A stretch of 64,000 bases of DNA from IMG/VR virus record IMGVR_UViG_3300012953_000015, positions 79,013-143,012 of that record. One strand, 5' to 3'. The translations under genes were made by a program, and so were the position numbers. Under the pieces are notes generated by a model. That model made no database searches and was not told the origin of the DNA. It saw nothing but the letters and a program-made list of their open reading frames with translations. Each line of letters opens with the position of its first letter. Within the stretch, counting starts at the first letter, position 1. Shown in pieces: positions 34,081-57,063 of this stretch. Origin of the DNA: a virus.

Positions 34081-34090
34081 TGGAGAAAAA

Positions 34091-35320: not shown

Positions 35321-35326
35321 GAGAGT

Positions 35327-36172
35327 ATGCACAGTATTATTTTAACTATTCACAATGGAGAAAGATGCCCGTTTGGAGGAAAATTTCTGTTAGAAAGAGT
35401 TTTAGAAGGAATCATAGAAAATACAGTTGGTGATTACGAGCTATTATGTATGCTAGACGGCTGTACAGATAATTCGAAAAAAATTGTTGAAAGATATATT
35501 CAGGATTTCAATCATCTAAAAATTCGTCCAATTGTAACTCCTGATATATTTGAACTGCGGACTAATAACGTGGGTTTTAAAGCGTCTAAAGGAAAATATG
35601 TAATTGTCGTTCAGGATGACCAGATCGTTACTGAGAAGGGATGGAACGCTAGAATGCAAGAACCATTTGATTTCTTTGATGACGTATTTGCAGTGACTGC
35701 TAGGACTGCTCATAATTGGATAATTAATCCAAGTAGCATAGATTTGGGAAATGATAACGTAGACGAGACAAGGTTTTGTGATATTTTCGAATCTGCGGAT
35801 GTTACTAGCGGATATCCAGCAAGCAATATCAACATCGATAGGAATACATTTGCAGTAAGGGGAACTGTTAACCGTGGACCTCTGATGATGGATTTAGAAG
35901 ACTTAAAGGCTGTAAATTATTTAGATGATAAATTTGCTCCTTGCGATATGGATGATCATGATCTAATGTTTAGAGTTCATAAGCAGCTTGGAAAAGTTTG
36001 TGGCTTATATCGCGTTGGAGTTGAGTCTGATCATAGATGGAGTGGTTCAATGCAAAAAGGTCCACCGACCTGGGGATATCGTTCTCATTTTAAAAATTGC
36101 CGAATATTTTACGATAGAAATAAAGATATTCTTTTACAAAGAAGAATAGTAGAAAACAGGAGATTAAAATGA
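35327..36172 (+). CDS. Glycosyltransferase family 2
   Basis: LDGCTDNS, QDD, DDHDL. Confidence 0.85.
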   Translation: MHSIILTIHNGERCPFGGKFLLERVLEGIIENTVGDYELLCMLDGCTDNSKKIVERYIQDFNHLKIRPIVTPDIFELRTNNVGFKASKGKYVIVVQDDQIVTEKGWNARMQEPFDFFDDVFAVTARTAHNWIINPSSIDLGNDNVDETRFCDIFESADVTSGYPASNINIDRNTFAVRGTVNRGPLMMDLEDLKAVNYLDDKFAPCDMDDHDLMFRVHKQLGKVCGLYRVGVESDHRWSGSMQKGPPTWGYRSHFKNCRIFYDRNKDILLQRRIVENRRLK

Positions 36173-36864
36173 TTGATTTAGAACGTAAGTTTTTATTCAT
36201 TCACATAGGAAATTCTGCCGGCACTAGCATAGAGAAATCTTTATCTAATGAAACCACTTACTTTACCCCTTTTGGCAAACGACCTGGCGGAGCTCATTGG
36301 ACTTATTGGAAGAAAAAAGAGTGGTTTAAAGAATCCGAAAATACCTACACCAAGAATTTGGATTTTACTTTTGAAGATTTATATAAATTTGTAATTGTTA
36401 GAAACCCTTGGGATAGGATGGTTTCTAAATACATGCATGAATCGCAAAACGTTGAAGTTTTCACCCAACATGTTTCTGATGGTTTGAAAGGTGGTCCGGA
36501 TTTTATTAGTTTCTTAATGCATATTAAGGAAAATAACGTGCAAGATCAAGATCTTCATCTTTCGCCAAGTTTAGATTGGTTTCCACCAGAAGAAATGGAT
36601 AAAATAATTATTTTTGACAATCTTCAAAAAGGTTTTCAAGAAGCAACGAAAGAGATTGGTTTAGAAAAAGCGTTAGAAGATATTCACCCAGGACTTACTA
36701 ATGGCTCTTGGAAAAAACCTGATAGAAATCTTGATAGTTTTGGAAACCCAAGAAAACATTACAGTCTTTATTATAACGATGAATGTATAGAGTACGTCAG
36801 GGAACGTTTTAAGAAAGACATTGATTATTTCAACTTTGAATTTGATGATAAGAGGCAGAGATGA
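36169..36864 (+). CDS. Sulfotransferase family 2-like protein
   Basis: FIHIGNSAGTSI, VRNPWDRMVS, KDIDYFNF. Confidence 0.8.
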   Translation: MIDLERKFLFIHIGNSAGTSIEKSLSNETTYFTPFGKRPGGAHWTYWKKKEWFKESENTYTKNLDFTFEDLYKFVIVRNPWDRMVSKYMHESQNVEVFTQHVSDGLKGGPDFISFLMHIKENNVQDQDLHLSPSLDWFPPEEMDKIIIFDNLQKGFQEATKEIGLEKALEDIHPGLTNGSWKKPDRNLDSFGNPRKHYSLYYNDECIEYVRERFKKDIDYFNFEFDDKRQR

Positions 36865-37226
36865 AAAATACTACAGAAATACCCATAAAATTTGTTCCTA
36901 AAGGGTGGGGCTTTGAAAAGTGGATAGTAAACTGCGAAGAATACTGCGGTAAACTGTTATATTTTGCTAAAGGTAAAATGTGTTCTTGGCATTATCATGA
37001 ATTAAAAGATGAAGTTTTCTACATCCAGAGTGGAAAAATTCTAGTAAAGTATTCTGATGAAGACGACATTACGAAAGCAAAAGAGAAAATACTCGGTCCA
37101 GGAGATAACTTTCACGTGTATAGGGGGTTGAGGCATAGAATGATAGCATTGCAAGATACAGAGCTTTTTGAGTTTTCTACTCAGCACTTCGATTCAGATA
37201 GCTATAGAATCGAGAAAGGAGATTAA
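36861..37226 (+). CDS. Cupin-domain sugar isomerase-like protein
   Basis: VPKGWG, SWHYHELKDEVF, HRMIA, EFST. Confidence 0.85.
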   Translation: MKNTTEIPIKFVPKGWGFEKWIVNCEEYCGKLLYFAKGKMCSWHYHELKDEVFYIQSGKILVKYSDEDDITKAKEKILGPGDNFHVYRGLRHRMIALQDTELFEFSTQHFDSDSYRIEKGD

Positions 37227-37227
37227 T

Positions 37228-37980
37228 TTGAGTCACATATGTATATCTTCGTATTTTGGAGGATTAGGAGATTCCTTACAGTTTTCAACTTTACCTGAAC
37301 TTTTTACAGAAGCTGGAAGAGACGTTTTCGTCTGGGATAAAGCGTACTTTAGAAATCCCGAAGTAAAAGAGTTAGTCTGGGATTGTAACCCTTTTATAAA
37401 AGGAACTGCTCCAGGGGTTTGGAATGCTGGCGATCTTCCCGGATTACACAAGCCTGTACATGAAAATTGTATATCTAATTGGGAAATTCTTCATGGTTTT
37501 GAACCCACAAATATCTATCCTAAAATATACTATGATATAGAATATCAAAGTGGTTACGAAGATGTTGTGTTAGTAGATTTCTCAAGTATAACTCACAAAT
37601 ATGATAAAGAAAAAATAGAAAATGCTTTCAAAAAAATAAGAGAAAGTGAATTTTCTGGTAAAAAAGTTGTACAAGTTGCTTTTAAGAAAGATTTAAATAA
37701 AAAAGGAGCTCCCCCGGGAAGATCTAACGATGGAAATTTTCATTTCTACGATATTTGCAAAGATAAAATAGAGATCAACTCTCTTTTCGAGTACTGCAAC
37801 TTAATTGGTTCTTGTCACGGGATGATAACTACTTATAGCGGCGCTAGCCCTTTAAGCTCTGCTTTAAAGAGGCAAAATAAAAATTTAAGAAGTATTTGTA
37901 TAATACCAGAAGAGCAATATGAAAATGATAAGAAAAGATCTATTTTCATATTTGATAATATTGAATACAATTTAATTTAA
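37228..37980 (+). CDS. Putative GT-B (GT9/GT11-like) glycosyltransferase
   Basis: N-terminal GGLGDSL; C-terminal MITTYSGA; AAGGAG SD before TTG 37228. Confidence 0.5.
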   Translation: MSHICISSYFGGLGDSLQFSTLPELFTEAGRDVFVWDKAYFRNPEVKELVWDCNPFIKGTAPGVWNAGDLPGLHKPVHENCISNWEILHGFEPTNIYPKIYYDIEYQSGYEDVVLVDFSSITHKYDKEKIENAFKKIRESEFSGKKVVQVAFKKDLNKKGAPPGRSNDGNFHFYDICKDKIEINSLFEYCNLIGSCHGMITTYSGASPLSSALKRQNKNLRSICIIPEEQYENDKKRSIFIFDNIEYNLI

Positions 37981-37991
37981 AAGGGAGTTAA

Positions 37992-38966
37992 ATGAAATAT
38001 CTAATAACTGGAATAACTGGTTTTGCTGGGCCTCATCTTGCTAACCTTCTTCATTCTCATGGCCATGAGGTGTATGGTTTAGTTAGGTGTAGCAACGGAA
38101 CAGAAAACGATATAAGAGATGTAGTACCAGATGAAGTTTTTAACGAAATTGGTTTCTTATACGCTGATCTTCAAAACTTTAGAGCAATCAGCAACGTAAT
38201 GAGGAATAATCGTTTTGATGGTGTTTTTCATTTAGCTGCGCAATCTCACCCACCGACAAGCTTTCTAGACCCGGTAGGTACCTTTGAGTGTAACGTTATG
38301 GGAAGTATAAACCTTATACAAGCTATAGAAGATAATCAACCAGATTGTCGATTAATGTTTTGTTCTACTTCTGAAGTTTATGGTAACGTTGGAGCTGATG
38401 GAAGAAAGATAGTTGAAGATGACGTTATTTTTCCAGCTAACCCTTATGGAGCTTCTAAAGCAGCGATAGACCTTTATATGCAGGAAAGAATGCACAATGG
38501 AAAAATCAAAGGTTTTGTAACAAGAGCTTTCTCTCACACGGGAACCCGAAGGGGAAAAAACTTTTCTATATCTTCAGATGCATATCAAGTAGCTAGAATG
38601 ATCAAAGGATATCAAGATAAAGTTTTGTTAGTTGGAAACTTGGATTCTGTAAGAGTCGTAATTGATGTTAAAGATACAGTTAATTCTTATTATCTTGCTA
38701 TGATAAATGAAGACTGCATGGGTAAAGTTTTTAACGTTTGTGGCGACGATCCAAAAAGAATGCAGTTTTTTAGTGATAAACTGATTGAACTTTCCGGGTT
38801 AAAAGGGGTGACCAAGAAAGTTCATCCTCCTTTTTATCGACCAATTGATATACATTATCAACACGGAGATTCTAGTAAGATCTCAAATTTAACTGGTTGG
38901 AAAGTCAAAAGAGATATTGAAGACACTCTATCAGACTTGATAAAGTATTGGGTAGACAAAATCTAA
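37992..38966 (+). CDS. GDP-mannose 4,6-dehydratase / Rmd-like SDR
   Basis: ITGITGFAG, HLAAQS, STSEVYG, PYGASK, GNLDS, RPIDI. Confidence 0.9.
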   Translation: MKYLITGITGFAGPHLANLLHSHGHEVYGLVRCSNGTENDIRDVVPDEVFNEIGFLYADLQNFRAISNVMRNNRFDGVFHLAAQSHPPTSFLDPVGTFECNVMGSINLIQAIEDNQPDCRLMFCSTSEVYGNVGADGRKIVEDDVIFPANPYGASKAAIDLYMQERMHNGKIKGFVTRAFSHTGTRRGKNFSISSDAYQVARMIKGYQDKVLLVGNLDSVRVVIDVKDTVNSYYLAMINEDCMGKVFNVCGDDPKRMQFFSDKLIELSGLKGVTKKVHPPFYRPIDIHYQHGDSSKISNLTGWKVKRDIEDTLSDLIKYWVDKI

Positions 38967-39358
38967 TGATCACGGTTTTTACTCCTGGTTGTTTTGATAT
39001 ACTTCACCATGGTCATATAGAACTTTTTAAATATTGTCGTTCGATTGGTGATGAAGTTATAGTTGGTTTAAATAGTGATGATAGCATAAGAAAGATTAAA
39101 GGTTCTAACAGGCCCATTAACAACTTAAAAAGCAGAATTTCTGTTTTAAACTCTATAAAATATATTGACAAAGTGATTGTTTTTGAAGAAGAAGATCCAT
39201 ATAATTTGATAAAAAATATCAACCCAGATATTATGGTTAAAGGTGGAGACTACAAAGCAGAAGACGTCATTGGAAAAGATTTATGCGAAGTTAGGATATT
39301 TAGTTACATCGATGGCTACTCAACAACAAAATCAATACAACGTTTTAATTCTAGGTGA
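38966..39358 (+). CDS. D-glycero-manno-heptose 1-phosphate adenylyltransferase-like (HldE/RfaE domain II)
   Basis: GCFDILHHGH, VGLNSDDS, KGSNRPIN, VKGGDY, YSTT. Confidence 0.9.
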   Translation: MITVFTPGCFDILHHGHIELFKYCRSIGDEVIVGLNSDDSIRKIKGSNRPINNLKSRISVLNSIKYIDKVIVFEEEDPYNLIKNINPDIMVKGGDYKAEDVIGKDLCEVRIFSYIDGYSTTKSIQRFNSR

Positions 39359-40082
39359 TGTTTGTAAAGACATATACATTTTCGGAGAATGTTTAAGACT
39401 AAGTCCGGAAGCTCCAGTTCCCGTCTTAGATCAGAAGTTAGTAGAAGAACGTTTCGGTATGGTTGCTAATGTAAGAAGCAACTTTGAAAATATGTCTCCA
39501 AATTCAGAAATATCTTATTTAACTCACGATTCGAACTTATCCGTGAAAACAAGATTTGTAGATTCGAGATCGGGTCAACAAATTATGCGTCACGACGTTT
39601 CTCAAAAGATACCAGAATTAGGTTTAGAAAAGATTAAAAATAAAAAGTATGACGCTATCATTATATCAGACTACAATAAAGGTTTTATAAGTAATAAAAC
39701 TGTTGAATTTTTAAAAGATCTTAAGTCTCCAATATTCGTAGATACGAAGAAAAGAAATTTAAGTAGCTACTCAGGTTGCTATGTTAAAGTCAACGAATTT
39801 GAAGATAAAAAAGCTTACAATAAAAAAGGGTGTGAATTAATTGTGACCCTAGGATCAAAAGGCGCTCTATACAATGGGGTTAAGTACCCAACCGATATAG
39901 TTGAGGTTCACGATGCATGTGGAGCTGGTGATGTTTTTTTAGCTAGCTTAGTATCTCGTTGGTTAGAAACTAGAGATTTAGACGTTTCTATAAAAACTGC
40001 GAATAAATGTGCTAGTTATAGCGTTACCAAAGTTGGTTCTTACTCTTTGACTTTAGAAGAATATGAAAAACTAAAAGTTTAA
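39312..40082 (+). CDS. Heptose-7-phosphate kinase-like PfkB kinase (HldE/RfaE domain I)
   Basis: RLSPEAPVPV, KTRF, SDYNKG, VHDACGAGDVF. Confidence 0.88.
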   Translation: MATQQQNQYNVLILGDVCKDIYIFGECLRLSPEAPVPVLDQKLVEERFGMVANVRSNFENMSPNSEISYLTHDSNLSVKTRFVDSRSGQQIMRHDVSQKIPELGLEKIKNKKYDAIIISDYNKGFISNKTVEFLKDLKSPIFVDTKKRNLSSYSGCYVKVNEFEDKKAYNKKGCELIVTLGSKGALYNGVKYPTDIVEVHDACGAGDVFLASLVSRWLETRDLDVSIKTANKCASYSVTKVGSYSLTLEEYEKLKV

Positions 40083-42803: not shown

Positions 42804-45800
42804 ATGAGTTCAATAATTACCCCTCCAAAGAAATTTGTATCACTTCATTCCCACGATGGATTTAGCACTTTCGATGGCCTAGGATATCCTCAGGAACATA
42901 TCGATTTCGTAATCGAGAATGGAATGGACAGTTGGTGTCTGACTAATCACGGCCACATGAACAGCTTTGCCCATGCTTTTCTTCATGCCGAAAAGATCAA
43001 CAAACGTGGAGGAAACTTTAAATTTGTTCCAGGTTGCGAAATGTATGTTCATCCGGATTTAGATATATGGAATCTTGATTATGAACTAGCAAAAGCAGCA
43101 AAAAAAGGCGATAAAGAATCTATTTCTAAACTTAGGGAACAAAGAGAAAGAATCAGAACTCCTTTATTCGCTAAAGTTGACGGCGACGATGAAACAGTCG
43201 AATTATCCACGGATCAAGGAAACCTGACTATAGAAAACGAAGAAGAATCTAAGTCAGCTAAGTTCTATGATCCAGTTAAAAGAAGACATCATTTAGTGGT
43301 TTTACCGAAGACTTCAATTGGCCTTCAGCGCCTCTTTCAATTAGTTTCTAGAGGATACTTAGAAGGTTTTTATAGGTTTCCTAGAGTTGATTACAAAATG
43401 CTTAGAGAAGCCGCTGAAGGCGGTCATCTAATGATTTCTTCTGCGTGCTTAGGAGGACCTTTAAGCTACGAGGTTTTCAAGCATCTCCAAGAGGTGGAGT
43501 TTGATAATTTAAGCTACAAACTTCTAAATGATCCTTCAATAATGAAGAAAGTTCAAGAAGGCATATCTAACTCTTTTGATGCAATGGCTTATGCGGTCGG
43601 AACTAAGAATGTTAAACTAGAATTGCAGTTTAATAAACTTCCAGCCCAACACTTAGTCAATCGTGCTATAATGAAGTTTGCTGATGATCATAACCTTAGA
43701 GAGCAATTGGTAGTGACTTGTGATTCTCATTATGCTCACCCTGAACACTGGCGCGAAAGAGAAATTTACAAGAAGCTTGGTTGGCTTAACTTTAAAGACT
43801 TCGACCCAGATTCTTTACCTAAATCTAGGGAAGAATTATCTTGTGAACTTTATCCTAAGAATTCAGAACAAGTCTGGGATTCTTTTGAGAAAACAACAGA
43901 GGGCATGGATTTTTACGATCCTCAAATAATTTCAGATGCTATCAACCGGACTTATGATATAGTCCATGAAGAAATTGGAGAAATCAATCCAGACCGAGAA
44001 ATGAAGCTTCCCTCATATGTCATACCAAAGGGGAAGACAGCAAGCCGAGCTCTTTTAGATTTTTGTAAAAAAGGAATGATTGAAAGAAATCTCCACGAAG
44101 ATTCTGAATATATTGAAAGGCTTAAGGCTGAATTTACTGTCATTAAAGACAAAAACTTTGCTGAATATTTCTTGACAATGAAAGCGATACTAGATATCGC
44201 GCGCGAAAAAATGCTTATTGGTCCAGGTCGTGGCTCAGGTGCAGGTAGTTTAGTTAATTATGTTTTAGGAATAACTGACGTTGATCCAGTAAAGAATGGC
44301 CTCTTATTTGAAAGGTTTTTATCCCCAGAAAGAAATGAGATGCCTGACATCGATTCTGACGTTTCCGATAGAGATGAATTGATAACTCTTTTGAGGGATA
44401 ATTTTGGTGAATCTAATGTAGTGCCAATTTCCAACTACAATACTTTCAAATTAAAGTCTTTAGTCAAAGATGTTTCTAGGTTTTATCGAGTTCCTTTTGA
44501 AGAGGCTAATAAGGCTTTAGCTCCTTTAGAGGTAGACGTCAAGCGTGGTAGAAAGAATGATGCTGAGTCTGACGACTCGTTTGATATCAAAATTGGAGAA
44601 GCTATAAAATATTCAGAATCTTTAAGGAATTATCTTAAGAAGTATCCTGAAATTTTTGAACCTCTAAAAGTTTTGTTTAAGCAGAACAAAGCGCTAGGAA
44701 GACACGCAGGTGGCGTGATTATTTCTGAAAGAATCGCGGAAAGAATGCCGATCATTCTAGCTCGTGGAGAACCACAAACTCCATGGGTCGAAGGGATGAA
44801 TTACAAGCACTTAGAAGAGTTCGGTTGGATTAAGTTTGATTTGCTTGGTTTAGAAACATTAAGAATTATAGAAAAAACTATCAACCTTATCTTAACTAAG
44901 CAGGGAGCAGAAAACCCAAGCTTCTCTCAAATAAAAGAATGGTTTGATAGAAACATGTCTACGAACACTATTGATTTTAACGATCAAAAAGTTTATAAAA
45001 ATGTTTATCACGCCGGTAAGTGGGCTGCAATCTTCCAATGTACTCAAAGAGGTGCTCAAGCCCTTTTCAAACGCGCAAAGCCAGAATCTATAGTTGATAT
45101 AGCTACCTTGACGTCTATATACCGTCCTGGTCCTCTAAGCGCAAAAGTTGATAAGCTTTATATTGGAGCAAAGAAAAATCCTGAATCTGTTGTTTATGGT
45201 CATCCGCTCATCAAAGAGTGTTTAGAAGAGACTTATGGATGTATCATCTTTCAAGAGCAAGTCATGAACCTGTGTCATGTCGTTGCTGGCATTCCAAAAG
45301 ACGAATGCAACGCGATGAGAAAGATGATGAAGCCAGTAGGTTCAGGTAACGAAAATATAGACAAAGCTAGAGCTCTAAAGGAAAAGTTCATTTCAGGTTC
45401 TATCGCCAATGGCGTTGAAAAGCATGTTGCTGAAGACTTATACGAAAAGATTCTATATTTTGCTGGTTATGGTTTTAATAAGTCTCATGCTGTTTCTTAT
45501 GCTATCAACTCTTATTATTGCGCATGGCTAATGACTTACTACGAGCAAGAGTGGATCACAGCTTATTTAGAAGCTGTTTCTTCTAACCCTAATAAACTTT
45601 CTAAAGCTTTAAGCGAAGTCAAAAAGATGGGATATACAACAACTAAAGTTGATATTAACAAGGCTGGAAAAAACTGGACAGCTGTTAGTGAAAAAGTTTT
45701 GATGCCGTCTTTCTTTTCTTGCAAAGGTATTGGCGAAGCTGCGATAGAAGAGATACTATCCAATAGACCATATACAAGCATCGATAATTTGCTCTGGCAT

Positions 45801-46394
45801 GAAGACGGAAAATGGAAGCATTCTAAACTTAACAAAAAGACTTTGGAATCTCTTTTGAAAATTAGAGCTTTGGACTCTCTTGATTGGCAAAATTACTTTC
45901 AATCTTACAAACAGTTCTTTGACTGTGTAAGTGAAAACTGGCCGGCCTTAAGAAAGAGCACAAAAAAGAATCCGTATCAGGGCAAAGATAATCTCTTAGA
46001 GTTGATATTGGATTATCCAGAAGATGATTGGAACATTAAGGAAAATATGGAGTTTGAGGAATCTCTGCTAGGAACTATAAACATTAATAACTTGATTCCA
46101 GCTAAACTCTCTGAAAGGTTTGAGAAATTAGAAATTCAACCAATGGAAGAATGGAACTCAAAAAACCTTTATTGGTTTGTTGCTGTCAAGGTTAACAAAA
46201 AGAAGACTAAGAATGGCAAGCCTTATTTCTTACTAGATGCTTTAGGATCTAATGGGGAGAAAAACAGAATGTTCTGTTGGGGCACTAAGGAAGATTCTGT
46301 TCTAAACCCATATTCTCTTTGTGTTGCTGAGTTAGATAAATCTGATTTTGGATTTTCTACTACTTTTAGAAAAGTCAAAGTGTTTGAGGTATAA
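42804..46394 (+). CDS. dnaE: DNA polymerase III alpha subunit (family C)
   Basis: PHP domain HSHDGFSTFDG, TNHG, GCEMY, DSHY; GPGRGSGAGS, MPDIDSD, HAGG, KFDLLGL, YGFNKSHA. Confidence 0.97.
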   Translation: MSSIITPPKKFVSLHSHDGFSTFDGLGYPQEHIDFVIENGMDSWCLTNHGHMNSFAHAFLHAEKINKRGGNFKFVPGCEMYVHPDLDIWNLDYELAKAAKKGDKESISKLREQRERIRTPLFAKVDGDDETVELSTDQGNLTIENEEESKSAKFYDPVKRRHHLVVLPKTSIGLQRLFQLVSRGYLEGFYRFPRVDYKMLREAAEGGHLMISSACLGGPLSYEVFKHLQEVEFDNLSYKLLNDPSIMKKVQEGISNSFDAMAYAVGTKNVKLELQFNKLPAQHLVNRAIMKFADDHNLREQLVVTCDSHYAHPEHWREREIYKKLGWLNFKDFDPDSLPKSREELSCELYPKNSEQVWDSFEKTTEGMDFYDPQIISDAINRTYDIVHEEIGEINPDREMKLPSYVIPKGKTASRALLDFCKKGMIERNLHEDSEYIERLKAEFTVIKDKNFAEYFLTMKAILDIAREKMLIGPGRGSGAGSLVNYVLGITDVDPVKNGLLFERFLSPERNEMPDIDSDVSDRDELITLLRDNFGESNVVPISNYNTFKLKSLVKDVSRFYRVPFEEANKALAPLEVDVKRGRKNDAESDDSFDIKIGEAIKYSESLRNYLKKYPEIFEPLKVLFKQNKALGRHAGGVIISERIAERMPIILARGEPQTPWVEGMNYKHLEEFGWIKFDLLGLETLRIIEKTINLILTKQGAENPSFSQIKEWFDRNMSTNTIDFNDQKVYKNVYHAGKWAAIFQCTQRGAQALFKRAKPESIVDIATLTSIYRPGPLSAKVDKLYIGAKKNPESVVYGHPLIKECLEETYGCIIFQEQVMNLCHVVAGIPKDECNAMRKMMKPVGSGNENIDKARALKEKFISGSIANGVEKHVAEDLYEKILYFAGYGFNKSHAVSYAINSYYCAWLMTYYEQEWITAYLEAVSSNPNKLSKALSEVKKMGYTTTKVDINKAGKNWTAVSEKVLMPSFFSCKGIGEAAIEEILSNRPYTSIDNLLWHEDGKWKHSKLNKKTLESLLKIRALDSLDWQNYFQSYKQFFDCVSENWPALRKSTKKNPYQGKDNLLELILDYPEDDWNIKENMEFEESLLGTININNLIPAKLSERFEKLEIQPMEEWNSKNLYWFVAVKVNKKKTKNGKPYFLLDALGSNGEKNRMFCWGTKEDSVLNPYSLCVAELDKSDFGFSTTFRKVKVFEV

Positions 46395-46395
46395 T
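46367..46395 (+). promoter_or_regulatory. Sigma70-like promoter TAGAAA-N17-TATAAT, probably leaderless
   Basis: TATAAT 46390-46395 is 5 nt before ATG 46401, at the head of the modification operon. Confidence 0.55.
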
Positions 46396-46400: not shown

Positions 46401-47222
46401 ATGAAAAAATTTAACTCTATGAACGAACTTTTAGTTCACTACTGCGAAACGCTTCTTTCTGCAAAAGAAGTTTCTGCAAGAAATTCTAAACAGAAAGAAA
46501 TTATTTTTGAAAATTTTGAACTAACTAACCCTGCTAACATTGAAATAAGCTTAACGGGAAGAAAATTTAATAAAAACTACGCAATAGCGGAATGGCTATG
46601 GTACATTTCTGCTAACCCATCTTCTAGAAATATTGGAAAATTAGCTAAGATTTGGAATATCATTTCAGACAACAATCAAGAAGTTGAATCTAACTACGGC
46701 GTTTATTTAAAACCGCAGTGGAATTGGGTTAAGAATGAAATTATCAAAGATTTAGACACCCGACGTGCTACTTTCGTAATCAATCAACCACATCATAAGT
46801 ACAAAAACTCAAGTGATTATCCGTGCACTCAGTATATACAATTTTTTGTTAGAGAAAACAAGCTTCATATTGGCATAAACATGAGATCTAATGATTTAAT
46901 CTATGGATTGTGTAATGATGTTTTTACTTTTTCTTTATTCCAACAAATGATGTTGAACGAATTAAATCAATCTGGGTTGAATTTAGAGCTTGGTAGCTAC
47001 TTTCATTTTGCCGGAAGTTTACACATTTATGAGCATCACTACGAAATGGCAAAAAATATCTGTAATTCTATTGACAAACCAATAAATTCTTGTAGATTAA
47101 ATCAGGCAATAAATTGGTGTTTTATTGATGAAAATTTTCCATTCCCTGTTGCAGATATTGAAAAAAACGAAATATACGAATATGTTGAAAGACATTCAGG
47201 AGAAATTTTTAATAATGGATGA
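46401..47222 (+). CDS. Thymidylate-synthase-fold enzyme of dCMP hydroxymethylase type (T4 gp42-like)
   Basis: AEWLWY, SNYG, catalytic PCT, MRSNDLIYGLCND (Asp at the dUMP/dCMP specificity position, Asn in ThyA), GSLHIY. Confidence 0.8.
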   Translation: MKKFNSMNELLVHYCETLLSAKEVSARNSKQKEIIFENFELTNPANIEISLTGRKFNKNYAIAEWLWYISANPSSRNIGKLAKIWNIISDNNQEVESNYGVYLKPQWNWVKNEIIKDLDTRRATFVINQPHHKYKNSSDYPCTQYIQFFVRENKLHIGINMRSNDLIYGLCNDVFTFSLFQQMMLNELNQSGLNLELGSYFHFAGSLHIYEHHYEMAKNICNSIDKPINSCRLNQAINWCFIDENFPFPVADIEKNEIYEYVERHSGEIFNNG

Positions 47223-47493
47223 AAGAAGTATACTCGAGCGCGCTAATGAAATTGTGAATCAACGCTCAGAAGAGAAAGAAAGAGAATATGGCCCTTTTAG
47301 CGAAGGTATGAAAAGGGCTGCTAGCATAGCGTCTGGAATGACTGGTAAAGACTTTACTGCTCACGATATGTACGTTGCTTTAGTATCCTTGAAGCTCAGT
47401 CGCCAAAGTTATCATTTTAAGGATGATAATTTGTTAGATGCAGTCGCTTATTTGGGAGCTTGGCATAACTACATTAAGGAAGGTGGGCAATGA
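47215..47493 (+). CDS. DUF6378-like all-alpha protein (putative dNTP pyrophosphohydrolase)
   Basis: ILERANEIV...R...EYG, LKLSR, DNLLDAVAY. Confidence 0.7.
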   Translation: MDERSILERANEIVNQRSEEKEREYGPFSEGMKRAASIASGMTGKDFTAHDMYVALVSLKLSRQSYHFKDDNLLDAVAYLGAWHNYIKEGGQ

Positions 47494-47927
47494 AAATTTC
47501 TAAAGTTAGAGACGTGAAAACCCCCACACGTGGAACTGATAAGTCTGCCGGTATAGATTTTTTTGTTCCTGATGATTTTGAGGAAACTCCTCTTTCTCCT
47601 GGTCAAAGCGCCTGTATACCTAGCGGTATCAAAGCTAACGTACCTGAAGGATATGCTCTAGTTGTTTTCAATAAGAGTGGAGTTGCTTTAAAAAGAAATC
47701 TTTCTGTTGGTGCTTGCGTAATAGATGAAGATTATCAAGGCGAAATACATCTCCATGTTTATAATTTTGGTAATAAGGTAGAAACAGTTTCTAGCGGAGA
47801 AAAACTAGTTCAAATGATTCTTTTGCCAGTGTTTTACGACGTATTAGATGTGGTAGATGTTCAAGATTTGTTTTCTGAAGAAACTTCTAGAGGAGAAGGT
47901 GGTTTTGGAAGTACGGGAGTTTCGTAA
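47490..47927 (+). CDS. dut: Trimeric dUTPase
   Basis: SAGIDF, NKSG, VIDEDYQGEI, LVQ, RGEGGFGSTG. Confidence 0.92.
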   Translation: MKISKVRDVKTPTRGTDKSAGIDFFVPDDFEETPLSPGQSACIPSGIKANVPEGYALVVFNKSGVALKRNLSVGACVIDEDYQGEIHLHVYNFGNKVETVSSGEKLVQMILLPVFYDVLDVVDVQDLFSEETSRGEGGFGSTGVS

Positions 47928-49015
47928 TGGTAGAGACTAGAACTTTAGTTGTAGATGTCGACGACACTATTTCTACCCATGTTAATCGTGATTACGAAAA
48001 CGCAATCCCGCACACGAAAATTATAAATAAGATAAACAAAATGTACGATTCAGGTTGGAAGATTGTATATTTTACAGCGCGCGGACAAGTTTCTTGTAAC
48101 GGGGATTTAGAACTAATTAATCAGCTTAGAAGGCCGGTTCTTGAATCTTGGATGGAGAAGCATGGAGTGAAGTATCACGAGCTAATGTTTGGAAAACCTA
48201 TAGGTGTCTATTACATCGATGATAAAGCGATGCGTCCTGAAGAATTTATGGACTTGGAATATGAAGTTTTGAAAGGCGGCTCCGGAGGATCTATAGAGAA
48301 AGTTGGCGATCGGATTATTAAAAAAGCTAATAACGCTAAAGACCAATTTCGGTGGTATAAGTCGGCCGCTAGTTTATGCCACGTTCCTAAAATTAACACC
48401 TATTACGGTGATACTTTAGATATGGAATACCTTGAAGGATCTAATTTAAACGACGTTTGTGCTAAGGAACACATAGATTATTTAGTCGATTTGTTGACGA
48501 GGTTTAGTGATATAAAAGTTTCTAATAATAGCTGGCAAACCATGATAGATAGAGTTAAAGATCACATCTCTTTAAACGCTGTAAGAAATGAAAGAGAAAT
48601 TATAAAACTTTTAGAAAGTCAGCAAGTTAGAGATTTTATGGATAGTCAAGCTAGTTTTTCACACGGCGATCTTACATTAGAAAACTGCATCCTTATGGAT
48701 GATAAGGTCTATCTTATAGATCCTAATTGCCCCGACAACATTTACAGTTCTTGGGTAATGGATATCGGAAAACTGTATCAATCTTTGCATTATTCTTATG
48801 AAGAGAATTTCTCTGGATTCAAAACAAACGTTGATAAAGAAGAGCTTTTCGGTCATTTATATAGAAAATTTAACGAGAATTTTTCTAGATATTTTTTACT
48901 TTGTGAAATGATTCACTACATTCGAATGATTAAATACAAGCCAGATGATCAAAAAAGTCTTGTAAGGAAAAGAATTCAAGACATTTTTAAGGAAGTGAAA
49001 ATTGTTTTTAGATAA
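47927..49015 (+). CDS. Fusion of BcbF-like HAD phosphatase and APH/choline-kinase-like phosphotransferase
   Basis: N-terminal VDVDDTI, FTARG, GKP, YIDDK; C-terminal GGSGG, HGDLTLEN, LIDP. Confidence 0.8.
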   Translation: MVETRTLVVDVDDTISTHVNRDYENAIPHTKIINKINKMYDSGWKIVYFTARGQVSCNGDLELINQLRRPVLESWMEKHGVKYHELMFGKPIGVYYIDDKAMRPEEFMDLEYEVLKGGSGGSIEKVGDRIIKKANNAKDQFRWYKSAASLCHVPKINTYYGDTLDMEYLEGSNLNDVCAKEHIDYLVDLLTRFSDIKVSNNSWQTMIDRVKDHISLNAVRNEREIIKLLESQQVRDFMDSQASFSHGDLTLENCILMDDKVYLIDPNCPDNIYSSWVMDIGKLYQSLHYSYEENFSGFKTNVDKEELFGHLYRKFNENFSRYFLLCEMIHYIRMIKYKPDDQKSLVRKRIQDIFKEVKIVFR

Positions 49016-49457
49016 GAAAGAATTAGCTGAAAAATTGGGGAGAGATCCAACTGTTGGGTTTACTTGTTCTACTTTCGATCTTTTCCATTCTGGTCACGTC
49101 GTAATGTTGCAAGAGGGTAAATCACTTTGTGATTATCTCGTAGTGGGATTGCTAACCGACCCTACTATTGATCGCCCAGAAACTAAAAACAAACCGGTCC
49201 AAAGCGTGATGGAGAGGTACTTGCAACTAGCTGCGTGTAAATACGTTGACGAAATTATACCTTTTGAATCTGAGCAAGATTTAGTTGACTTGATCTTAAC
49301 GATTAATCCCGACATAAGAATAGTCGGGGAAGAGTATAAGGGATCTGATCACACCGGCGTCGGTTTGTGTCCTATTCATTATAATAAGAGAAGGCATTCT
49401 TTCTCTACCACGCAACTAAGAGAGAGAGTTTTAAAATCAAGGGAGAAAAGCGAATGA
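49002..49457 (+). CDS. TagD-like cytidylyl/nucleotidyltransferase (HxGH family)
   Basis: STFDLFHSGH, KYVDEIIP, FSTTQLR. Confidence 0.9.
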   Translation: MFLDKKELAEKLGRDPTVGFTCSTFDLFHSGHVVMLQEGKSLCDYLVVGLLTDPTIDRPETKNKPVQSVMERYLQLAACKYVDEIIPFESEQDLVDLILTINPDIRIVGEEYKGSDHTGVGLCPIHYNKRRHSFSTTQLRERVLKSREKSE

Positions 49458-50851
49458 AGATTGCAATGATTTTCGGCAAAGGCCTAGACGGGTGTGGGGT
49501 CCAGAGAGGGGCTGTAGAGATTGCTACTTGGGCTCAAAGAAACGATGTTAAATTTGACATATATTATATGAAGGGTAGAAGCTTCGCACGTGCTAAAGGC
49601 CACTCGATGCCAACTGAACCGATAGAGTTTAAGCATTCAGAGATACCTTCACTAGTAGAAAGATTAAATTCAGATTACGATATTGTAATTTTAAATTCAT
49701 ATCCGTCTTCTAAGCACGATCCGCAAGCTATAATGTCGTTTTATGAAAATTTAGTTAAGAAGATTGAAGAGCCAGTTTTAGTTGGGATGATGCATGAGAT
49801 AAAGAAAGCTAATATCGATGCTATTCCAATGATATTACCGATACTAAATTACTGCGATATCGTTTACAATTTTTCTGAAAAGACATTCTTTTCTAACGAA
49901 TTTTCTTCTTATTTTTCTTCCAAGATTCTAGGCGAGAGAACTAAAAGATTTAAGATGTGGATAGATCTTAATGAGATGAAGAAAAACTATAGAGATGTAT
50001 ATAGTTTAAAAGACAAAGACAAAAAGTTGATGTATGTCGGTCGTTGGACTTCTATGAAAGATCCGAGAAGGGTTCTCGATTTATACCCTACTATGAAAGA
50101 AAAAGACCCAAACTTTAGGCTGGCTTTACACGGGATAGAAAGATCAATTGGCGCTAAGTTTGATATTATAGATCATCCAAACTCAGTTTACGATTTAAAT
50201 TTCAATGGGTATGACTGGGACGTAGATGGTGTTCCAACATTCGGTCCATACGATTACGCTGATGGCATGGAGCTAATATCTAAATCTTTGTTTGCTTGCT
50301 CTTTTTACCGTTTACCTAAAGAACCTCACAATTACGGAGATAGGATGGAATATACTCAAATAGAGATCATTGGGTGTGGAACAATTCCTGTTTTTGACAA
50401 GCACTATGGAGAGCACAATATAGATTCTAACGGGAATAGGTATATTGACAATGATTACCTAGCTGTTTGGTCTTCTCGTGATGATTTAGGGGAAACTGCT
50501 GATAAACTAATATCTATTGCTGATAGCCCCTCTGAACAAAAGAAATACAGGGATTCAAGTTTTGATTTTATCGATCGAGAATTCAACGCAGACAATGTTC
50601 TTCCCGAGATGTTTGACTACATTTTGAAGACAGGAAAAGATAACAATAAATTTTCTAATGACAGAGATTTGCTTACTCATCTCTTCCGTGACGACCGAGC
50701 TTTCAACGATTATCTCGAGATACTTGAACAAGGTAAAGTTCCAGCTGTCGGCATTAAACAAGTAACTAATCAATCATTATGTTTCTTTGAGAAGAAAGCT
50801 CGCAGAGAATTTGCTTGCTACAAACAAAAAAGGGTTAGGAGAAAGAAATGA
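49454..50851 (+). CDS. DNA alpha-glucosyltransferase homologue (T4 AGT-like, GT-B)
   Basis: GLDGCGV, ILNSYP, VGRWTSMK, GIERS, MEYTQIEIIGCGTIPVF are collinear with T4 AGT motifs as recalled (GLEGCGV, INSVP, IGRTTTWK, GLERS, LEYTHLELGACGTIPVF). Confidence 0.85.
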   Translation: MKIAMIFGKGLDGCGVQRGAVEIATWAQRNDVKFDIYYMKGRSFARAKGHSMPTEPIEFKHSEIPSLVERLNSDYDIVILNSYPSSKHDPQAIMSFYENLVKKIEEPVLVGMMHEIKKANIDAIPMILPILNYCDIVYNFSEKTFFSNEFSSYFSSKILGERTKRFKMWIDLNEMKKNYRDVYSLKDKDKKLMYVGRWTSMKDPRRVLDLYPTMKEKDPNFRLALHGIERSIGAKFDIIDHPNSVYDLNFNGYDWDVDGVPTFGPYDYADGMELISKSLFACSFYRLPKEPHNYGDRMEYTQIEIIGCGTIPVFDKHYGEHNIDSNGNRYIDNDYLAVWSSRDDLGETADKLISIADSPSEQKKYRDSSFDFIDREFNADNVLPEMFDYILKTGKDNNKFSNDRDLLTHLFRDDRAFNDYLEILEQGKVPAVGIKQVTNQSLCFFEKKARREFACYKQKRVRRKK

Positions 50852-52005
50852 GTGATATTTCTTGGGCAACTATGATTCCTCTTATTGGAGGATCTGCTAT
50901 AGGATGCAGCCAAGCTACTGAAAATTTGCCAAAGTTTCACTTAAGTTTTAAGGCTTTTGAGCAAAACGAAAACCACTTGACTAGCTATTGGCCAGATATT
51001 CAGAGAATCGATTTGGATGAAGTTGCTCTTCCGCAAGCCCGGCTTGATTTCGTCAATTCTGTCTGCCCGTGCGCAGGATTAAGCCAATTAAACACAAGCC
51101 AAGATCAGTCTACGAGAGATAGCAAGAATGCTTGGATGATGAAAACTTCTAGAATCGTTCTAGAACAAGTTCGGCCTAGAGTTTATTGGGGGGAAAACGC
51201 TCCCGCTCTCTATACTAAATCGGGAGAATCAGTCAGAGAACAGTTGAAGGAAATAGCAGCAGATACCGGCTATTCATTTTCAGTATATAGAACTTCTACC
51301 TTTAAACATGGCATACCACAAAAGCGTTTAAGAACTTTTTATTTTTTCTGGGATTCAAAGACTGCTCCAATCATGAATTGGTACGACAGGAAAAGAGACA
51401 ACCTAATAGAGTACCTGAAAAAGATACCCTCGGATTCTAAGCAGCAGGACGTTTATAATTTGAACGATATTTTTACTAAATTTCCATCTTACGCCTTTTT
51501 GCTTGAAAAGCACGAGTTAGACCACAAAGCTTTTATAGAAAAATTTGGTTCTGGACCAGCTCACTCAGTGCATCAGTTTATTGTAAGGAACGATCTTATT
51601 GATGAGTGTTTAGAGTGGTTAAATGACAAGAATCCAGAGCACAAAGAAGTTAGGAAATTTGAGCATATTAAGAATAAGCTTTCGATGGGAAAGAGTTTCT
51701 TAGATCATTCACCAGCTTTTTACAACGACTGTACTAACGCTATAGTCGGCAGAACCTTACAGATGATTATGCACCCGGAGCAACCTCGAGGCATGAGTCA
51801 TAGAGAAATTATGCACCTTATGGGACTCCCAAATGATTTCAATTTACAGACCAAAAGATTAAACGACGTTGCTCAAAATGTTCCAACTTGCACTGCAAGA
51901 GACATGACATACGAAGTTATGAAATATCTAAAAGGGCAGTTAGAAAATTCTGGTCACGTAAATTATAAACAAGATAACATTAAAAATGTTTCGGGTGAAT
52001 TATGA
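50848..52005 (+). CDS. C5-cytosine DNA methyltransferase-like protein with divergent SAM motif
   Basis: Motif IV CPCAGLS, VI GENAP, VIII GIPQKRLR, IX REIMHLMGLP, X AQNVP; motif I reads IPLIGG instead of FxGxGG. Confidence 0.8.
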   Translation: MSDISWATMIPLIGGSAIGCSQATENLPKFHLSFKAFEQNENHLTSYWPDIQRIDLDEVALPQARLDFVNSVCPCAGLSQLNTSQDQSTRDSKNAWMMKTSRIVLEQVRPRVYWGENAPALYTKSGESVREQLKEIAADTGYSFSVYRTSTFKHGIPQKRLRTFYFFWDSKTAPIMNWYDRKRDNLIEYLKKIPSDSKQQDVYNLNDIFTKFPSYAFLLEKHELDHKAFIEKFGSGPAHSVHQFIVRNDLIDECLEWLNDKNPEHKEVRKFEHIKNKLSMGKSFLDHSPAFYNDCTNAIVGRTLQMIMHPEQPRGMSHREIMHLMGLPNDFNLQTKRLNDVAQNVPTCTARDMTYEVMKYLKGQLENSGHVNYKQDNIKNVSGEL

Positions 52006-53012
52006 AAGTTTTAGTGACAGGTGGTTTAGGGTTCATTGGTTCTAACTTAGTTAGAAAATTACTTGAAAAAAATTATTCTGTAGATGTAATAGATGATATG
52101 TCTAACGGGAGTTTAGACTCTTTACATGGTTTAGATTTTAGAACTGTTCCTGTCAACTTTTTGCTAAAATACGAGCATGAGAAAGAGGAAGAAGATAACA
52201 AGAATTTGTTAGTTATAACAGGGGATTTTGCTCACAGGTATGTACTGGGAAGGATCGCTGATAAAAAATATGATTTTGTTTTTCATCTTGCTGCTCTTCC
52301 AAGAGTAGAGTACTCAGTTGAAAACCCTATAGAAACTTCTGATATCAATGTTATGCGTAGCATAAAGTTACTGACCGCGTGCGTAAAAAATATAAAAAGA
52401 TTTATTTTCAGTAGCTCTTCAGCAATATATGGAAACGTAGAAGATAATTTTCCGTCTCGTGAGAGTGGTTCTGTCAAACCTAGTTCTCCATACGGCTTAC
52501 AAAAGAAAGTTGTTGAAGATTACTGCAAACTTTTCTATTGTCTTTACGGGTTGGATTCTGTTAGTTTAAGGTACTTCAACGTTTATGGACCCGGCCAGTT
52601 AGGCGACAGCCCTTACTCTACTGCAGTTTCTGCTTGGATAAACAAATTAGTAGAGAAGAAACCGCTTCGAAGTGATGGAGATGGAACACAGTCTAGAGAT
52701 TTAATTTTCGTTGACGATATTTGCGCTGCAAATATCTTATGCGCAGAATTTAAAGGTAGCTTAGAGGGAGATGTTTACAACGTAGGTACCGGTAAAGCTT
52801 TATCTAACAACCAAATTTTAGAAATGTTAGAAAAACATTGCGGTAGATACCAAGTGATAAACGCGCCGGAGAGAAAGGGAGACGTGAAGCATACCCTTTC
52901 TGATGTTGCTAAAATAAAAGAAAAATTATTTTTTATCCCAGAAATAAATTTCGAAGAAGGTTTAATTAAAACGCTGGAATGGTGGGGGCTTAAAAATGAA
53001 GAGCAATCCTAG
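52002..53012 (+). CDS. NAD-dependent NDP-sugar epimerase/dehydratase
   Basis: TGGLGFIG, SSSAIYG, YGLQK, RYFNVYG, GDGTQSRD. Confidence 0.92.
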   Translation: MKVLVTGGLGFIGSNLVRKLLEKNYSVDVIDDMSNGSLDSLHGLDFRTVPVNFLLKYEHEKEEEDNKNLLVITGDFAHRYVLGRIADKKYDFVFHLAALPRVEYSVENPIETSDINVMRSIKLLTACVKNIKRFIFSSSSAIYGNVEDNFPSRESGSVKPSSPYGLQKKVVEDYCKLFYCLYGLDSVSLRYFNVYGPGQLGDSPYSTAVSAWINKLVEKKPLRSDGDGTQSRDLIFVDDICAANILCAEFKGSLEGDVYNVGTGKALSNNQILEMLEKHCGRYQVINAPERKGDVKHTLSDVAKIKEKLFFIPEINFEEGLIKTLEWWGLKNEEQS

Positions 53013-53586
53013 ATTTGAGATATTCACCGGCCCCATGTTCGGAGGAAAGACGACAAGGCTATTATCTTCTTTAGAGAGGTACACATATCAAAATAAGAAT
53101 GTGTTACTTTTTAAGCCTAGGATAGACACAAGGTATTCTGATTCATCTATAGTCACTCACTCTGGGATAAGTTGGAGTGGTAATAAAAATTCGTTTAGTA
53201 AAGTCATAAGGGTAGAAACGAGTGAAGAACTGTTTTCTCTTTTTGAAAACTACAATCAAAAGTTTGATGTAGATGTAGTTGCTTTAGACGAAGCTTTCAT
53301 GATTGAAAATGTTTCTGAGTCTTTAATAAAGATTTATAAAATGGGAAAAACAATCTTAGTTTCTAGTTTACAACTTTCTTCGGGAGGGACTCCCTATAAT
53401 GAAATGAGCAAGATCATGCCTTGGGCTACAAGCGTACAAATATGTCCAGCTGTTTGTTCTGTCTGCGGCGAAGACGCTTACTATACTAGCAAGAGCTCTG
53501 GTAAAGATCATGACTCTATAGAAGTAGGTGGCTCTGAAATGTATCAACCGCGGTGTTTTCAACATTTCATAAACGAGATATCCTGA
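52996..53586 (+). CDS. tdk: Thymidine kinase (TK1 type)
   Basis: GPMFGGKT, FKPRIDTRY, LDEA, CSVCG, YQPRC. Confidence 0.92.
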   Translation: MKSNPRFEIFTGPMFGGKTTRLLSSLERYTYQNKNVLLFKPRIDTRYSDSSIVTHSGISWSGNKNSFSKVIRVETSEELFSLFENYNQKFDVDVVALDEAFMIENVSESLIKIYKMGKTILVSSLQLSSGGTPYNEMSKIMPWATSVQICPAVCSVCGEDAYYTSKSSGKDHDSIEVGGSEMYQPRCFQHFINEIS

Positions 53587-53639: not shown

Positions 53640-54500
53640 ATGATAATGGTTGAACCAAATTCTGTAAATGTAGTGATATATCACGCAGATTGCACTGATG
53701 GTTTCGGCGCAGCGTATTCAGCGTGGAAACAATTGGGAAATAGAGCTGAATATCACGCCGCTAAACACGGACAAACTCCACCTGACGTAAAAGATAAAAT
53801 TGTTGCTATATTAGATTTTTCTTTTGATAATGCAACAACTAAGAGAATGATTGAAGACGCCGAAGGTCTTATCGTTATAGATCATCACAAATCTGCTATG
53901 GTTGAACTCCACGATATCTCGAACACTCATTTTGATATGACTAAAAGTGGTGCGATGTTATCCTGGGAATTTTTCCATCCCGGAAAAGAACCTCCTAAGT
54001 TCGTGTCTTATATTCAGGATAGAGATTTGTGGAAATGGGAATTACCGTATTCAAAAGAGTTTGCTGCTGCTTTTGATATGATTCCTTTCGAATTTGAAGA
54101 GTTCGAAAAGTTTGAAGACGATTCAGTGTTTGATGATGCAGTCAAAAGAGGATCATATATTCTTGCGTATTCAAAGACTGTTGTGAAAAAAGTTTGTGAA
54201 AAAGCAGTTATCCGTTACTTTGAAGATAAAAAGATTATGATAGTAAACGCGTCTCACTGGATGTCAGAGATAGGAGCGAGACTATCTCCTGATTGTGATT
54301 TCGCAGTTATTTGGTATTTTGACCACGATGATGGTATTACCAAAGTAAGTTTACGCTCTTTTCATGACAACGTTGACGTGAGTGAGTTTGCCAAAAAATT
54401 CGGTGGTGGTGGTCATAAAAAGGCAGCCGGCTTCACTTTAGCCAAAGATCAGCATATAGCAGATATATTCTCGTTAGAACCAACAAAAGCTGAACAGTAA
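53640..54500 (+). CDS. DHH/DHHA1 phosphoesterase
   Basis: YHADCTDG, IDHHKS, DRDLW, SLRS, GGGGHKKAAGF. Confidence 0.9.
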   Translation: MIMVEPNSVNVVIYHADCTDGFGAAYSAWKQLGNRAEYHAAKHGQTPPDVKDKIVAILDFSFDNATTKRMIEDAEGLIVIDHHKSAMVELHDISNTHFDMTKSGAMLSWEFFHPGKEPPKFVSYIQDRDLWKWELPYSKEFAAAFDMIPFEFEEFEKFEDDSVFDDAVKRGSYILAYSKTVVKKVCEKAVIRYFEDKKIMIVNASHWMSEIGARLSPDCDFAVIWYFDHDDGITKVSLRSFHDNVDVSEFAKKFGGGGHKKAAGFTLAKDQHIADIFSLEPTKAEQ

Positions 54501-56622: not shown

Positions 56623-57063
56623 ATGAAAGAAAACATTAGGCCATCTTGGGATAATGTGTGGGCAAATGTTGCTAGAGAAATTTCTAAAAGATCTTACGAT
56701 CCACGCTACCAAGTAGGAGCAATAGTTGTAACTCACGACAATACTCAGGTTTTATCAGTAGGTTATAATGGAAATTACGCTGGTGGACCTAATAAGGTAG
56801 AATCGGATATTCCTGGCCAATCTGGCTTTATTCACGCAGAGATAAACTGTTTGTTAAAAATGGATTATAATAATCCGAAAAGAAAAATAATGTACTTAAC
56901 CCTCAGTCCTTGCCGGCAGTGTGCAAAAGCTATTGTAAATGCAGGTATATCAGAGGTTGTATATTTAGAGAAGTACAGGGATGTTTCAAGTATAAAAATT
57001 TTAGAAGAAGCAGGTGTCACTTGTCGTGAATATTTAGACTTAGCGGAGGATTTAAATGAGTAA
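56623..57063 (+). CDS. dCMP deaminase
   Basis: VGA, GYNG, HAEIN, SPCRQC. Confidence 0.92.
   Translation: MKENIRPSWDNVWANVAREISKRSYDPRYQVGAIVVTHDNTQVLSVGYNGNYAGGPNKVESDIPGQSGFIHAEINCLLKMDYNNPKRKIMYLTLSPCRQCAKAIVNAGISEVVYLEKYRDVSSIKILEEAGVTCREYLDLAEDLNE

Follow-up and report, generated by a model that had tools for sequence, protein, structure and literature searches.

The analysed window comprises 64,000 nucleotides of the IMG/VR virus record IMGVR_UViG_3300012953_000015 and is the terminal 64 kb of a linear 143-kb viral contig with an estimated completeness of 52%. Between positions 46401 and 53586, nine open reading frames follow each other on the plus strand, of which the first starts 6 nt past dnaE and neighbouring frames overlap by 1-17 nt (Table 1). 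They include a predicted deoxycytidine monophosphate (dCMP) hydroxymethylase, a set of predicted sugar-activating enzymes and a homologue of the DNA glycosyltransferase AGT of phage T4. Based on homology and on the analogy to characterized phages, we consider it probable that this locus encodes a T4-like pre-replicative pathway to glycosylated 5-hydroxymethylcytosine (hmC) with its own sugar activation. An earlier note on this DNA had described the nine-gene run and labeled its members; the coordinates confirm the layout, and family searches together with structure-database matches uphold all nine labels. The overlap itself is not distinctive, as overlapping genes are commonplace in the same arm (32 of 49 gene pairs).

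Table 1. Features of the locus behind dnaE (window coordinates).
Feature	Position	Strand	Basis
DnaE (DNA polymerase III alpha), likely replicase	42804..46394	+	PHP/Pol3 alpha domains in near-identical relatives; synteny
Candidate sigma-70 promoter	46367..46395	+	10/12 match; -10 TATAAT includes dnaE stop codon; would give leaderless or near-leaderless mRNA
dCMP 5-hydroxymethylase, T4 gp42 type (predicted)	46401..47222	+	PF00303; D139, C142, D165, D173 = E. coli L143D, C146, D169, N177D
DUF6378, four-helix protein, candidate MazG-like dCTPase	47215..47493	+	family searches; weak fold search
Trimeric dUTPase, scaffold gene	47490..47927	+	family searches
HAD sugar-bisphosphate phosphatase (RB69 gp51/AfhF family, residues 1-113) fused to APH-like sugar-phosphate kinase (predicted)	47927..49015	+	TIGR01689; HGD, IDP motifs
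HIGH-family nucleotidyltransferase (TagD/RfaE-II-like), predicted NDP-sugar pyrophosphorylase	49002..49457	+	family searches
DNA glycosyltransferase (predicted), T4 AGT (GT72) family, phage G subfamily	49454..50851	+	keeps R197, K202, E299, E304; I116, F140 vs T4 His116/His140
C5-cytosine methyltransferase (predicted), phage family	50848..52005	+	motif I PL[IV]GG, motif X QN; catalytic PC, EN, RxR intact
GalE/WbpP-like NDP-sugar 4-epimerase, lineage scaffold	52002..53012	+	family and structure searches
Thymidine kinase, scaffold gene	52996..53586	+	family searches
DHH phosphoesterase, conserved downstream neighbour	53640..54500	+	family searches; synteny
dCMP deaminase	56623..57063	+	co-conserved with TS/AGT cluster in 9/22 groups

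Predicted hydroxymethylase, AGT homologue and putative donor genes

The first gene encodes a thymidylate synthase (TS) homologue whose best match in the Protein Data Bank (PDB) is the dCMP hydroxymethylase gp42 of T4 (E 1.4e-18), with MilA and true ThyA ranking behind. According to the residue rules for TS-fold enzymes (Lee et al. 2026, PMC13326640; E. coli numbering), N177D leads to the use of dCMP, an acidic residue at position 143 leads to hydroxymethylation, and D169N marks 5-hydroxy-dCMP synthases. The window enzyme comprises the catalytic Cys, N177D and L143D and retains D169, and Asp at 143, 169 and 177 was likewise found in 45 of 45 complete TS motifs in the vicinity of AGT homologues, gp319 of phage G among them. 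The Asp at the dCMP-specificity position claimed in the earlier note was therefore found again (D173), and the proposed hydroxymethylation of dCMP is supported as a prediction from the active site. A 5-hydroxy-dCMP synthase of the RB69 gp48 type was rejected, since D165, the counterpart of D169, is retained; the same holds true for a thymidylate synthase ThyA or a dCMP methylase, which would comprise N177 or a hydrophobic residue at 143. A canonical second ThyA in phage G and a ThyX in the complete genome of a sister phage indicate that dTMP is supplied from elsewhere than the hmC-type TS. No TET homologue was found among the operon genes or in four genomes, namely the 143-kb contig and three near-complete genomes including that of the sister phage G003. 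Altogether, the gp42-type residues, the separate supply of dTMP and the lack of TET in these genomes provide good inferential support for the formation of hmC at the nucleotide level.

A different combination was observed in gp076 of cyanophage S-TIM5 (L161:10906-11742), which is annotated as thymidylate synthase. It comprises Asp at 177 and Cys at 143, as would be expected for a dCMP methylase, and this could bear on the origin of methylated cytosine in S-TIM5.

The AGT homologue passes the PF11440 profile with 43.1 bits (cut-off 25) and shows full-length homology to T4 AGT (PDB 1xv5, E 6e-20). The family residues G-C-G, Arg, Lys, E-Y-T and Glu are kept, the identity to gp306 of Bacillus phage G amounts to 45.5% over the full length, and at least 166 relatives occur in metagenomes. 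These matches argue for glycosylation by this enzyme, as had been proposed. For the analysis of its gene neighbourhood, about 150 AGT-anchored loci were collected and grouped at 60% identity, and co-occurrence was counted in those 22 groups for which 12 kb of context or more was available. The HAD, kinase and nucleotidyltransferase genes were all present beside AGT in 15 groups, TS was found in 15, the C5-methyltransferase (C5-MTase) in 13 and the dCMP deaminase in 9, compared to 5 groups for the epimerase, 4 for DUF6378 and one each for thymidine kinase (TK) and dUTPase. The co-conservation expected in the earlier note is supported by these counts. Since the nucleotidyltransferase slot is filled by two unrelated families (HIGH-type or RmlA/MurU-type) and the domain fusions vary, selection probably acts on the function of the module.

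In a quick maximum-likelihood tree, the module-linked AGTs form one branch (36 rows, SH-aLRT 93). With module status assigned per group and not per row, His116 of T4 AGT is replaced by Ile or Leu and His140 by Phe or Tyr in all 36 module-side rows, while in 12 of 12 T-even-side rows His116 is kept and the module is absent. The His116/His140 pair of the glucose-type AGTs from T-even phages is likewise lacking in the window enzyme, which carries I116 and F140. Both the changed residues and the module beside AGT point to a donor that is made by the phage and is probably not glucose, in line with the earlier proposal.

Two further arrangements around AGT were observed. In the loci L118, L119, L122, L130, L190, L206 and L210, a second GT-B-like gene and a tandem pair of C5-MTase paralogues come after AGT. 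Near the divergent AGT homologue of Geobacillus phage GR1 (L006:11980-13359), ThyX and DnaE are present, and neither a TS homologue nor a sugar module lies within 12 kb.

The donor module itself consists of the HAD-kinase fusion and the nucleotidyltransferase. The N-terminal HAD domain matches PDB 1xpj (E 9e-19) and 9iqw and shares 40-46% identity with the small HAD proteins of the arabinosylation clusters of Mosigvirus and Acinetobacter phages; RB69 gp51, a predicted arabinose-bisphosphate phosphatase, was matched to the same structure 1xpj. The C-terminal part is an APH-like domain in which the HGD and IDP motifs are intact, and its family profile matches the nucleotidyltransferase-kinase of Mosigvirus with an E of 1e-8 at a pairwise identity of just 20%. 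For the nucleotidyltransferase, the NCBIfam heptose adenylyltransferase domain scored 78 bits compared to 59 bits for TagD, and among solved structures, ethanolamine-phosphate and glycerol-3-phosphate cytidylyltransferases come closest. In RB69, DLP3 and HY126, a kinase, a HAD protein and a nucleotidyltransferase convert arabinose-5-phosphate to UDP-arabinose (PMC13326640). The window comprises the corresponding AfhE/AfhF-type set, i.e. a HAD of the 1xpj family, an APH-like kinase and a nucleotidyltransferase, although the last is of the HIGH type and not of the MurU type. It also comprises the run known from contig 53, in which a HAD-APH fusion, a cytidylyltransferase-like enzyme and a GT-B glycosyltransferase are all required for mono- and di-heptosyl-methylcytosine (Pyle et al., bioRxiv 10.1101/2023.12.21.572611). 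An arabinose-5-phosphate isomerase was found neither among the nine genes nor, as a SIS_2 match, in the 143-kb contig. Judged by these homologies, the donor is probably made by the phage itself and is probably not glucose. As to the sugar, we can offer a judgement rather than a measurement: a heptose is the tentative first choice, a pentose such as ribose or arabinose is a lesser possibility, as is, to the same degree, a hexose (including glucose) or another sugar, and a polyol is improbable. A GmhA-like gene of one module-bearing phage was dropped as evidence for heptose, since it lies 40 kb off in a separate glycan island.

The window, too, harbours a separate glycosylation island (29293-40082), which is not present at that position in several close relatives (L244, L247). 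It comprises a second 1xpj-type HAD (30045-30341) and genes for a NUDIX protein, a phosphoribosyltransferase, a DegT aminotransferase, a UDP-glucose dehydrogenase, a GT2 glycosyltransferase, a cupin, a GDP-mannose dehydratase, an HldE-like nucleotidyltransferase and a PfkB kinase.

In the C5-MTase, motifs IV (PC), VI (EN) and VIII (QxRxR) are invariant or nearly so in 39-46 homologues. The canonical S-adenosylmethionine (SAM) motifs I (FxGxG) and X (GN) are replaced by PL[IV]GG and QN throughout the family, including gp080 of S-TIM5. The structural model (pLDDT 92) matched M.HaeIII and M.HhaI in Foldseek with an E of about 1e-12; the C5-carboxymethyltransferase 8yf3 was among the structural neighbours, but the top matches were ordinary C5-MTases. 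The family comprises hundreds of members and accompanies many hmC-hypermodification clusters with differing modules, at times as tandem duplicates. No glycosyltransferase lies beside gp080 in S-TIM5, the DNA of which is reportedly C5-methylated. The simplest reading is that the enzyme would methylate cytosines left after a partial substitution by hmC, which is the weakest step of the proposed pathway.

Scaffold genes and genome setting

A search with the C5-MTase revealed sister phages with the gene order dnaE-TS-DUF6378-dUTPase-[module]-MTase-epimerase-TK-DHH-deaminase, the bracketed place being taken by an inositol module. The slot between dUTPase and MTase (L165-L171) contains an inositol-1-phosphate synthase, a 5hmdU-kinase-like protein, an FkbM methyltransferase and a small HAD-like gene. 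In other relatives (L193, L200, L208), MTase and TS adjoin dnaE with no module between dnaE and MTase. Read from gene order, TS and MTase provide a fixed scaffold with an exchangeable cassette, for which the options are the sugar module, the inositol module or none.

The epimerase diverges faster than the module genes (56-58% vs 84-89%), and in distant relatives with the AGT module it is relocated or missing. Since the sisters with the inositol module keep the epimerase, TK and dUTPase, and given the behaviour of the epimerase in the distant relatives, these three genes provide no evidence on the identity of the donor. Accordingly, the participation of the epimerase in donor synthesis, as assumed in the earlier note, is not supported: it accompanies few AGT groups, is kept by sisters without the AGT module and, going by these distributions, is probably not needed for the AGT donor route. 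It is more similar to GalE/WbpP than to ADP-heptose 6-epimerase, and its place as a core gene was rejected.

For DUF6378, the start is most likely the ATG at 47215 (92 aa, as in the homologues) and not 47125. The protein comprises four helices with invariant acidic residues. Foldseek returned no match and the fold searches gave no significant result; the best relevant fold match, 2p06 (Z 6.4, root mean square deviation 4.0, 76 aligned), lies within the background. DUF6378 is a candidate for the missing, MazG-like dCTPase. The 143-kb contig yielded no thymidylate kinase, T4-type dNMP kinase, ThyX, SIS isomerase or PRA-PH-type dCTPase, and no thymidylate or dNMP kinase and no PRA-PH match was found in the complete sister genome G003. 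The earlier observation that no kinase for hydroxymethyl-dCMP is visible was thus borne out beyond the window. A TS homologue alone leads to only low incorporation in E. coli (PMC13326640). Since neither a dNMP kinase nor a T4-type dCTPase was found even in the complete sister, the substitution by hmC may be partial.

Near-identical relatives originate from Tara and other metagenomes and lie on contigs of up to 275 kb, while the complete genome of sister phage G003, which carries the same scaffold, comprises 293 kb. Judged by these relatives, the window belongs to a marine jumbo phage, and DnaE is its likely replicase. Besides DnaE, the window encodes a 393-aa protein with a DNA polymerase A domain (PolA-like, 17759-18940).

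The single promoter that had been assumed for the operon was not confirmed, as a scan yielded 40 sites of such a score compared to 46 +/- 7 expected by chance. In both close and more distant relatives, however, a -10-like hexamer recurs 5-6 nt ahead of the start codon of TS, suggesting a leaderless mRNA. No terminator-like site was found directly after TK, and the DHH phosphoesterase followed by the dCMP deaminase is located downstream of TK in all close relatives in conserved order. The transcription unit therefore probably continues past TK, and the boundary after nine genes is arbitrary. The oligonucleotide composition showed no signature of GpC or CpG methylation (GC rho 1.15, CG 0.82). 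Across the whole contig, palindromes are not avoided overall; GGATCC (0.32), GAATTC (0.58) and GATC (0.82) are depleted and CCGG is 1.5-fold over-represented. This bias is uninformative on cytosine modification.

Proposed pathway and its alternatives

In the favoured pathway, the TS homologue would convert dCMP to 5-hydroxymethyl-dCMP, as inferred from the validated active-site rules, a host kinase or an unrecognised one would lead to the triphosphate, and DnaE would incorporate the modified nucleotide. Following the examples of RB69/HY126 and contig 53, the APH-like domain would add a phosphate to a host sugar-phosphate at its anomeric carbon, the HAD domain would strip the terminal phosphate, and the nucleotidyltransferase would then form the nucleoside diphosphate (NDP) sugar. 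The AGT-family enzyme would move the sugar with retention onto hmC in the DNA, shielding it against restriction. The substitution may be partial, in which case the C5-MTase would methylate the leftover cytosines; epimerase, TK and dUTPase would form a general nucleotide and sugar scaffold.

Several observations weigh against this interpretation. A dNMP kinase was found neither in the 143-kb contig nor in the complete sister, and a sugar isomerase neither in the cluster nor in the contig. The exchange of His116 and His140, which in T4 AGT presumably contact the glucose, marks a single clade and therefore counts as one evolutionary event. Heptose is an analogy and not a result, since the glycosyltransferase of contig 53 probably belongs to another family than AGT. 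Furthermore, as the contig is about half complete and carries a separate glycosylation island, some of the sugar genes could serve other acceptors.

The last point also favours ordinary alpha-glucosylation, in which AGT would use host UDP-glucose and the HAD-kinase and nucleotidyltransferase would top up the donor or serve another glycan. The clear homology to T4 AGT with its diphosphate- and sugar-binding Arg, Lys, Glu and Glu kept is compatible with this explanation, as is the island with its own HAD and nucleotidyltransferase. Nonetheless, we regard it as unlikely, since the module accompanies this AGT clade and is missing next to T-even-like AGTs, all three genes are needed in contig 53, and UDP-glucose is already supplied by the host. 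A donor of the CDP-polyol type (glycerol or ribitol phosphate), joined to hmC as a phosphodiester, would agree with the nearest solved relatives of the nucleotidyltransferase. The polyol considered in the earlier note is nevertheless disfavoured and in our view distinctly improbable: the pair of kinase and phosphatase is the signature of a phosphate shift to the anomeric carbon, AGT is a retaining glycosyltransferase, and NCBIfam ranks heptose adenylyltransferase above TagD.

The variant motifs I and X beside invariant catalytic residues could also be explained if the C5-MTase-fold protein were a tailoring enzyme. Such an enzyme would either attach a group other than methyl from a SAM analogue or work cofactor-free on hmC or C, and so create a second new C5 base. 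Its association with several different hypermodification modules, sometimes as tandem duplicates, and the neighbourhood of 8yf3 would fit. We doubt this explanation, because S-TIM5 gp080 shows the same motifs with no adjacent glycosyltransferase, the family counts hundreds of members, and ordinary C5-MTases are the top structural matches. Least probable by far is an ordinary thymidylate synthase or dUMP hydroxymethylase acting together with dUTPase, TK and dCMP deaminase, with no cytosine modification at all. It could draw on the adjoining nucleotide genes and on the lack of another TS or ThyX in the 143-kb contig, but it is contradicted by Asp at 177 and 143, by the ThyX of the complete sister and by the second, canonical ThyA of phage G.

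Beyond the glycosyl-hmC pathway as such, a wider scenario is put forward tentatively. A widespread AGT subfamily, found in marine T4-like phages, the jumbo lineage and phage G, might have been repurposed for a phage-activated non-glucose sugar, resulting in a chemically undescribed alpha-glycosyl-hmC. Genomes would then be maybe partly hmC, with the atypical C5-MTase acting on the remaining cytosines, i.e. a two-layer cytosine code copied by DnaE. The range of type IV restriction enzymes, glycosylases and CRISPR effectors that a phage can evade depends on the identity and linkage of the sugar. The T4 AGT family has so far been treated as glucose-only; it would be extended by a large module-linked branch with an altered pocket, which would also be a source of new enzymes for hmC labeling. 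In addition, a swappable cassette in a fixed TS-MTase scaffold would be a clean case of modular evolution of base modification.

Comparison with known systems

With the glucosyl-hmC system of T4 (gp42, gp1, gp56, AGT/BGT), the locus shares the gp42-type hydroxymethylase, the AGT homologue and the dCMP deaminase. T4, in contrast, draws UDP-glucose from its host, employs a family B polymerase as well as gp1 and gp56, has an AGT with His116/His140 and lacks both a donor module and a linked C5-MTase. The arabinosylating phages RB69, HY126 and DLP3 (AfhE/AfhF) likewise activate a sugar-phosphate with an APH-like kinase, a homologous HAD and a nucleotidyltransferase and modify dCMP with a TS homologue. 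In contrast to the window, their base is 5-hydroxycytosine (D169N), they comprise an arabinose-5-phosphate isomerase, a MurU-type transferase fused to the kinase and their own dNMP kinases, and their arabinosyltransferases are unrelated to the window AGT.

Contig 53 shares the bifunctional HAD-APH enzyme, the nucleotidyltransferase and a DNA glycosyltransferase. While hmC is formed there on the DNA by a C5-MTase and TET, the window encodes a predicted dCMP hydroxymethylase and no TET was found. The glycosyltransferase GT53 of contig 53 comprises 429 aa, is assigned to CAZy GT4 and has BshA and BGT as nearest structures, with no AGT entry among the structural matches (bioRxiv 10.1101/2023.12.21.572611). 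Based on this description, GT53 is probably not of the AGT family. The claim that the combination is unlike any known pathway cannot be maintained, as the UDP-arabinose logic of RB69/HY126 and the architecture of contig 53, which the window shares, precede it.

The core of the locus, together with DnaE, is also present in Bacillus (Lysinibacillus) phage G. Within about 30 kb, this phage comprises an MTase, two AGTs, a nucleotidyltransferase, a HAD, a kinase, a nucleotide kinase, a deaminase, an hmC-type TS and DnaE. AGT, the three-Asp TS, kinase, HAD, nucleotidyltransferase, MTase family, dCMP deaminase and DnaE (gp301-gp329) are thus common to both, whereas in phage G the kinase is separate, the HAD belongs to another subfamily, the transferase is of the RmlA type and a nucleotide kinase is present. 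Inside this cluster, gp315 (L005:25928-26923) is a nucleotide kinase fused to a domain of the uracil-DNA-glycosylase superfamily. In the literature, no report on the base chemistry of phage G was found; PMC13216743 mentions just the two AGT copies. As phage G has been cultured for decades and shares the core, the identity of the base is directly accessible there.

Enterococcus phage 9183 and Agathobaculum phage AB434P2 also combine a DnaE-type polymerase with an hmC-type TS, HAD, kinase and nucleotidyltransferase and a glycosyltransferase. In 9183/VPE25 and AB434P2, however, the glycosyltransferase belongs to another GT-B family, a nucleotide kinase is present, and no linked C5-MTase was seen in the regions read. 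The DNA of VPE25, which is related to 9183, is resistant to bisulfite and cleavable by PvuRts1I, i.e. cytosine-modified and probably glycosylated (PMC4999554). AB434P2 (L248:769-4500) and the locus L243 comprise a nucleotide kinase, a HAD-APH fusion, a HIGH nucleotidyltransferase, a GT-B protein of ~330 aa and an hmC-type TS, which in AB434P2 is mis-annotated as dUMP hydroxymethylase. AB434P2 is a cultured gut phage and, after phage G, well suited as another system in which to study the contig-53-type module. Since phage G, 9183 and AB434P2 carry such genes and the DNA of VPE25 is cytosine-modified, a modified-cytosine pathway beside DnaE is not unprecedented. With the T4-type base and the donor logic of RB69 and contig 53 already known, the new part is best read as the AGT branch.

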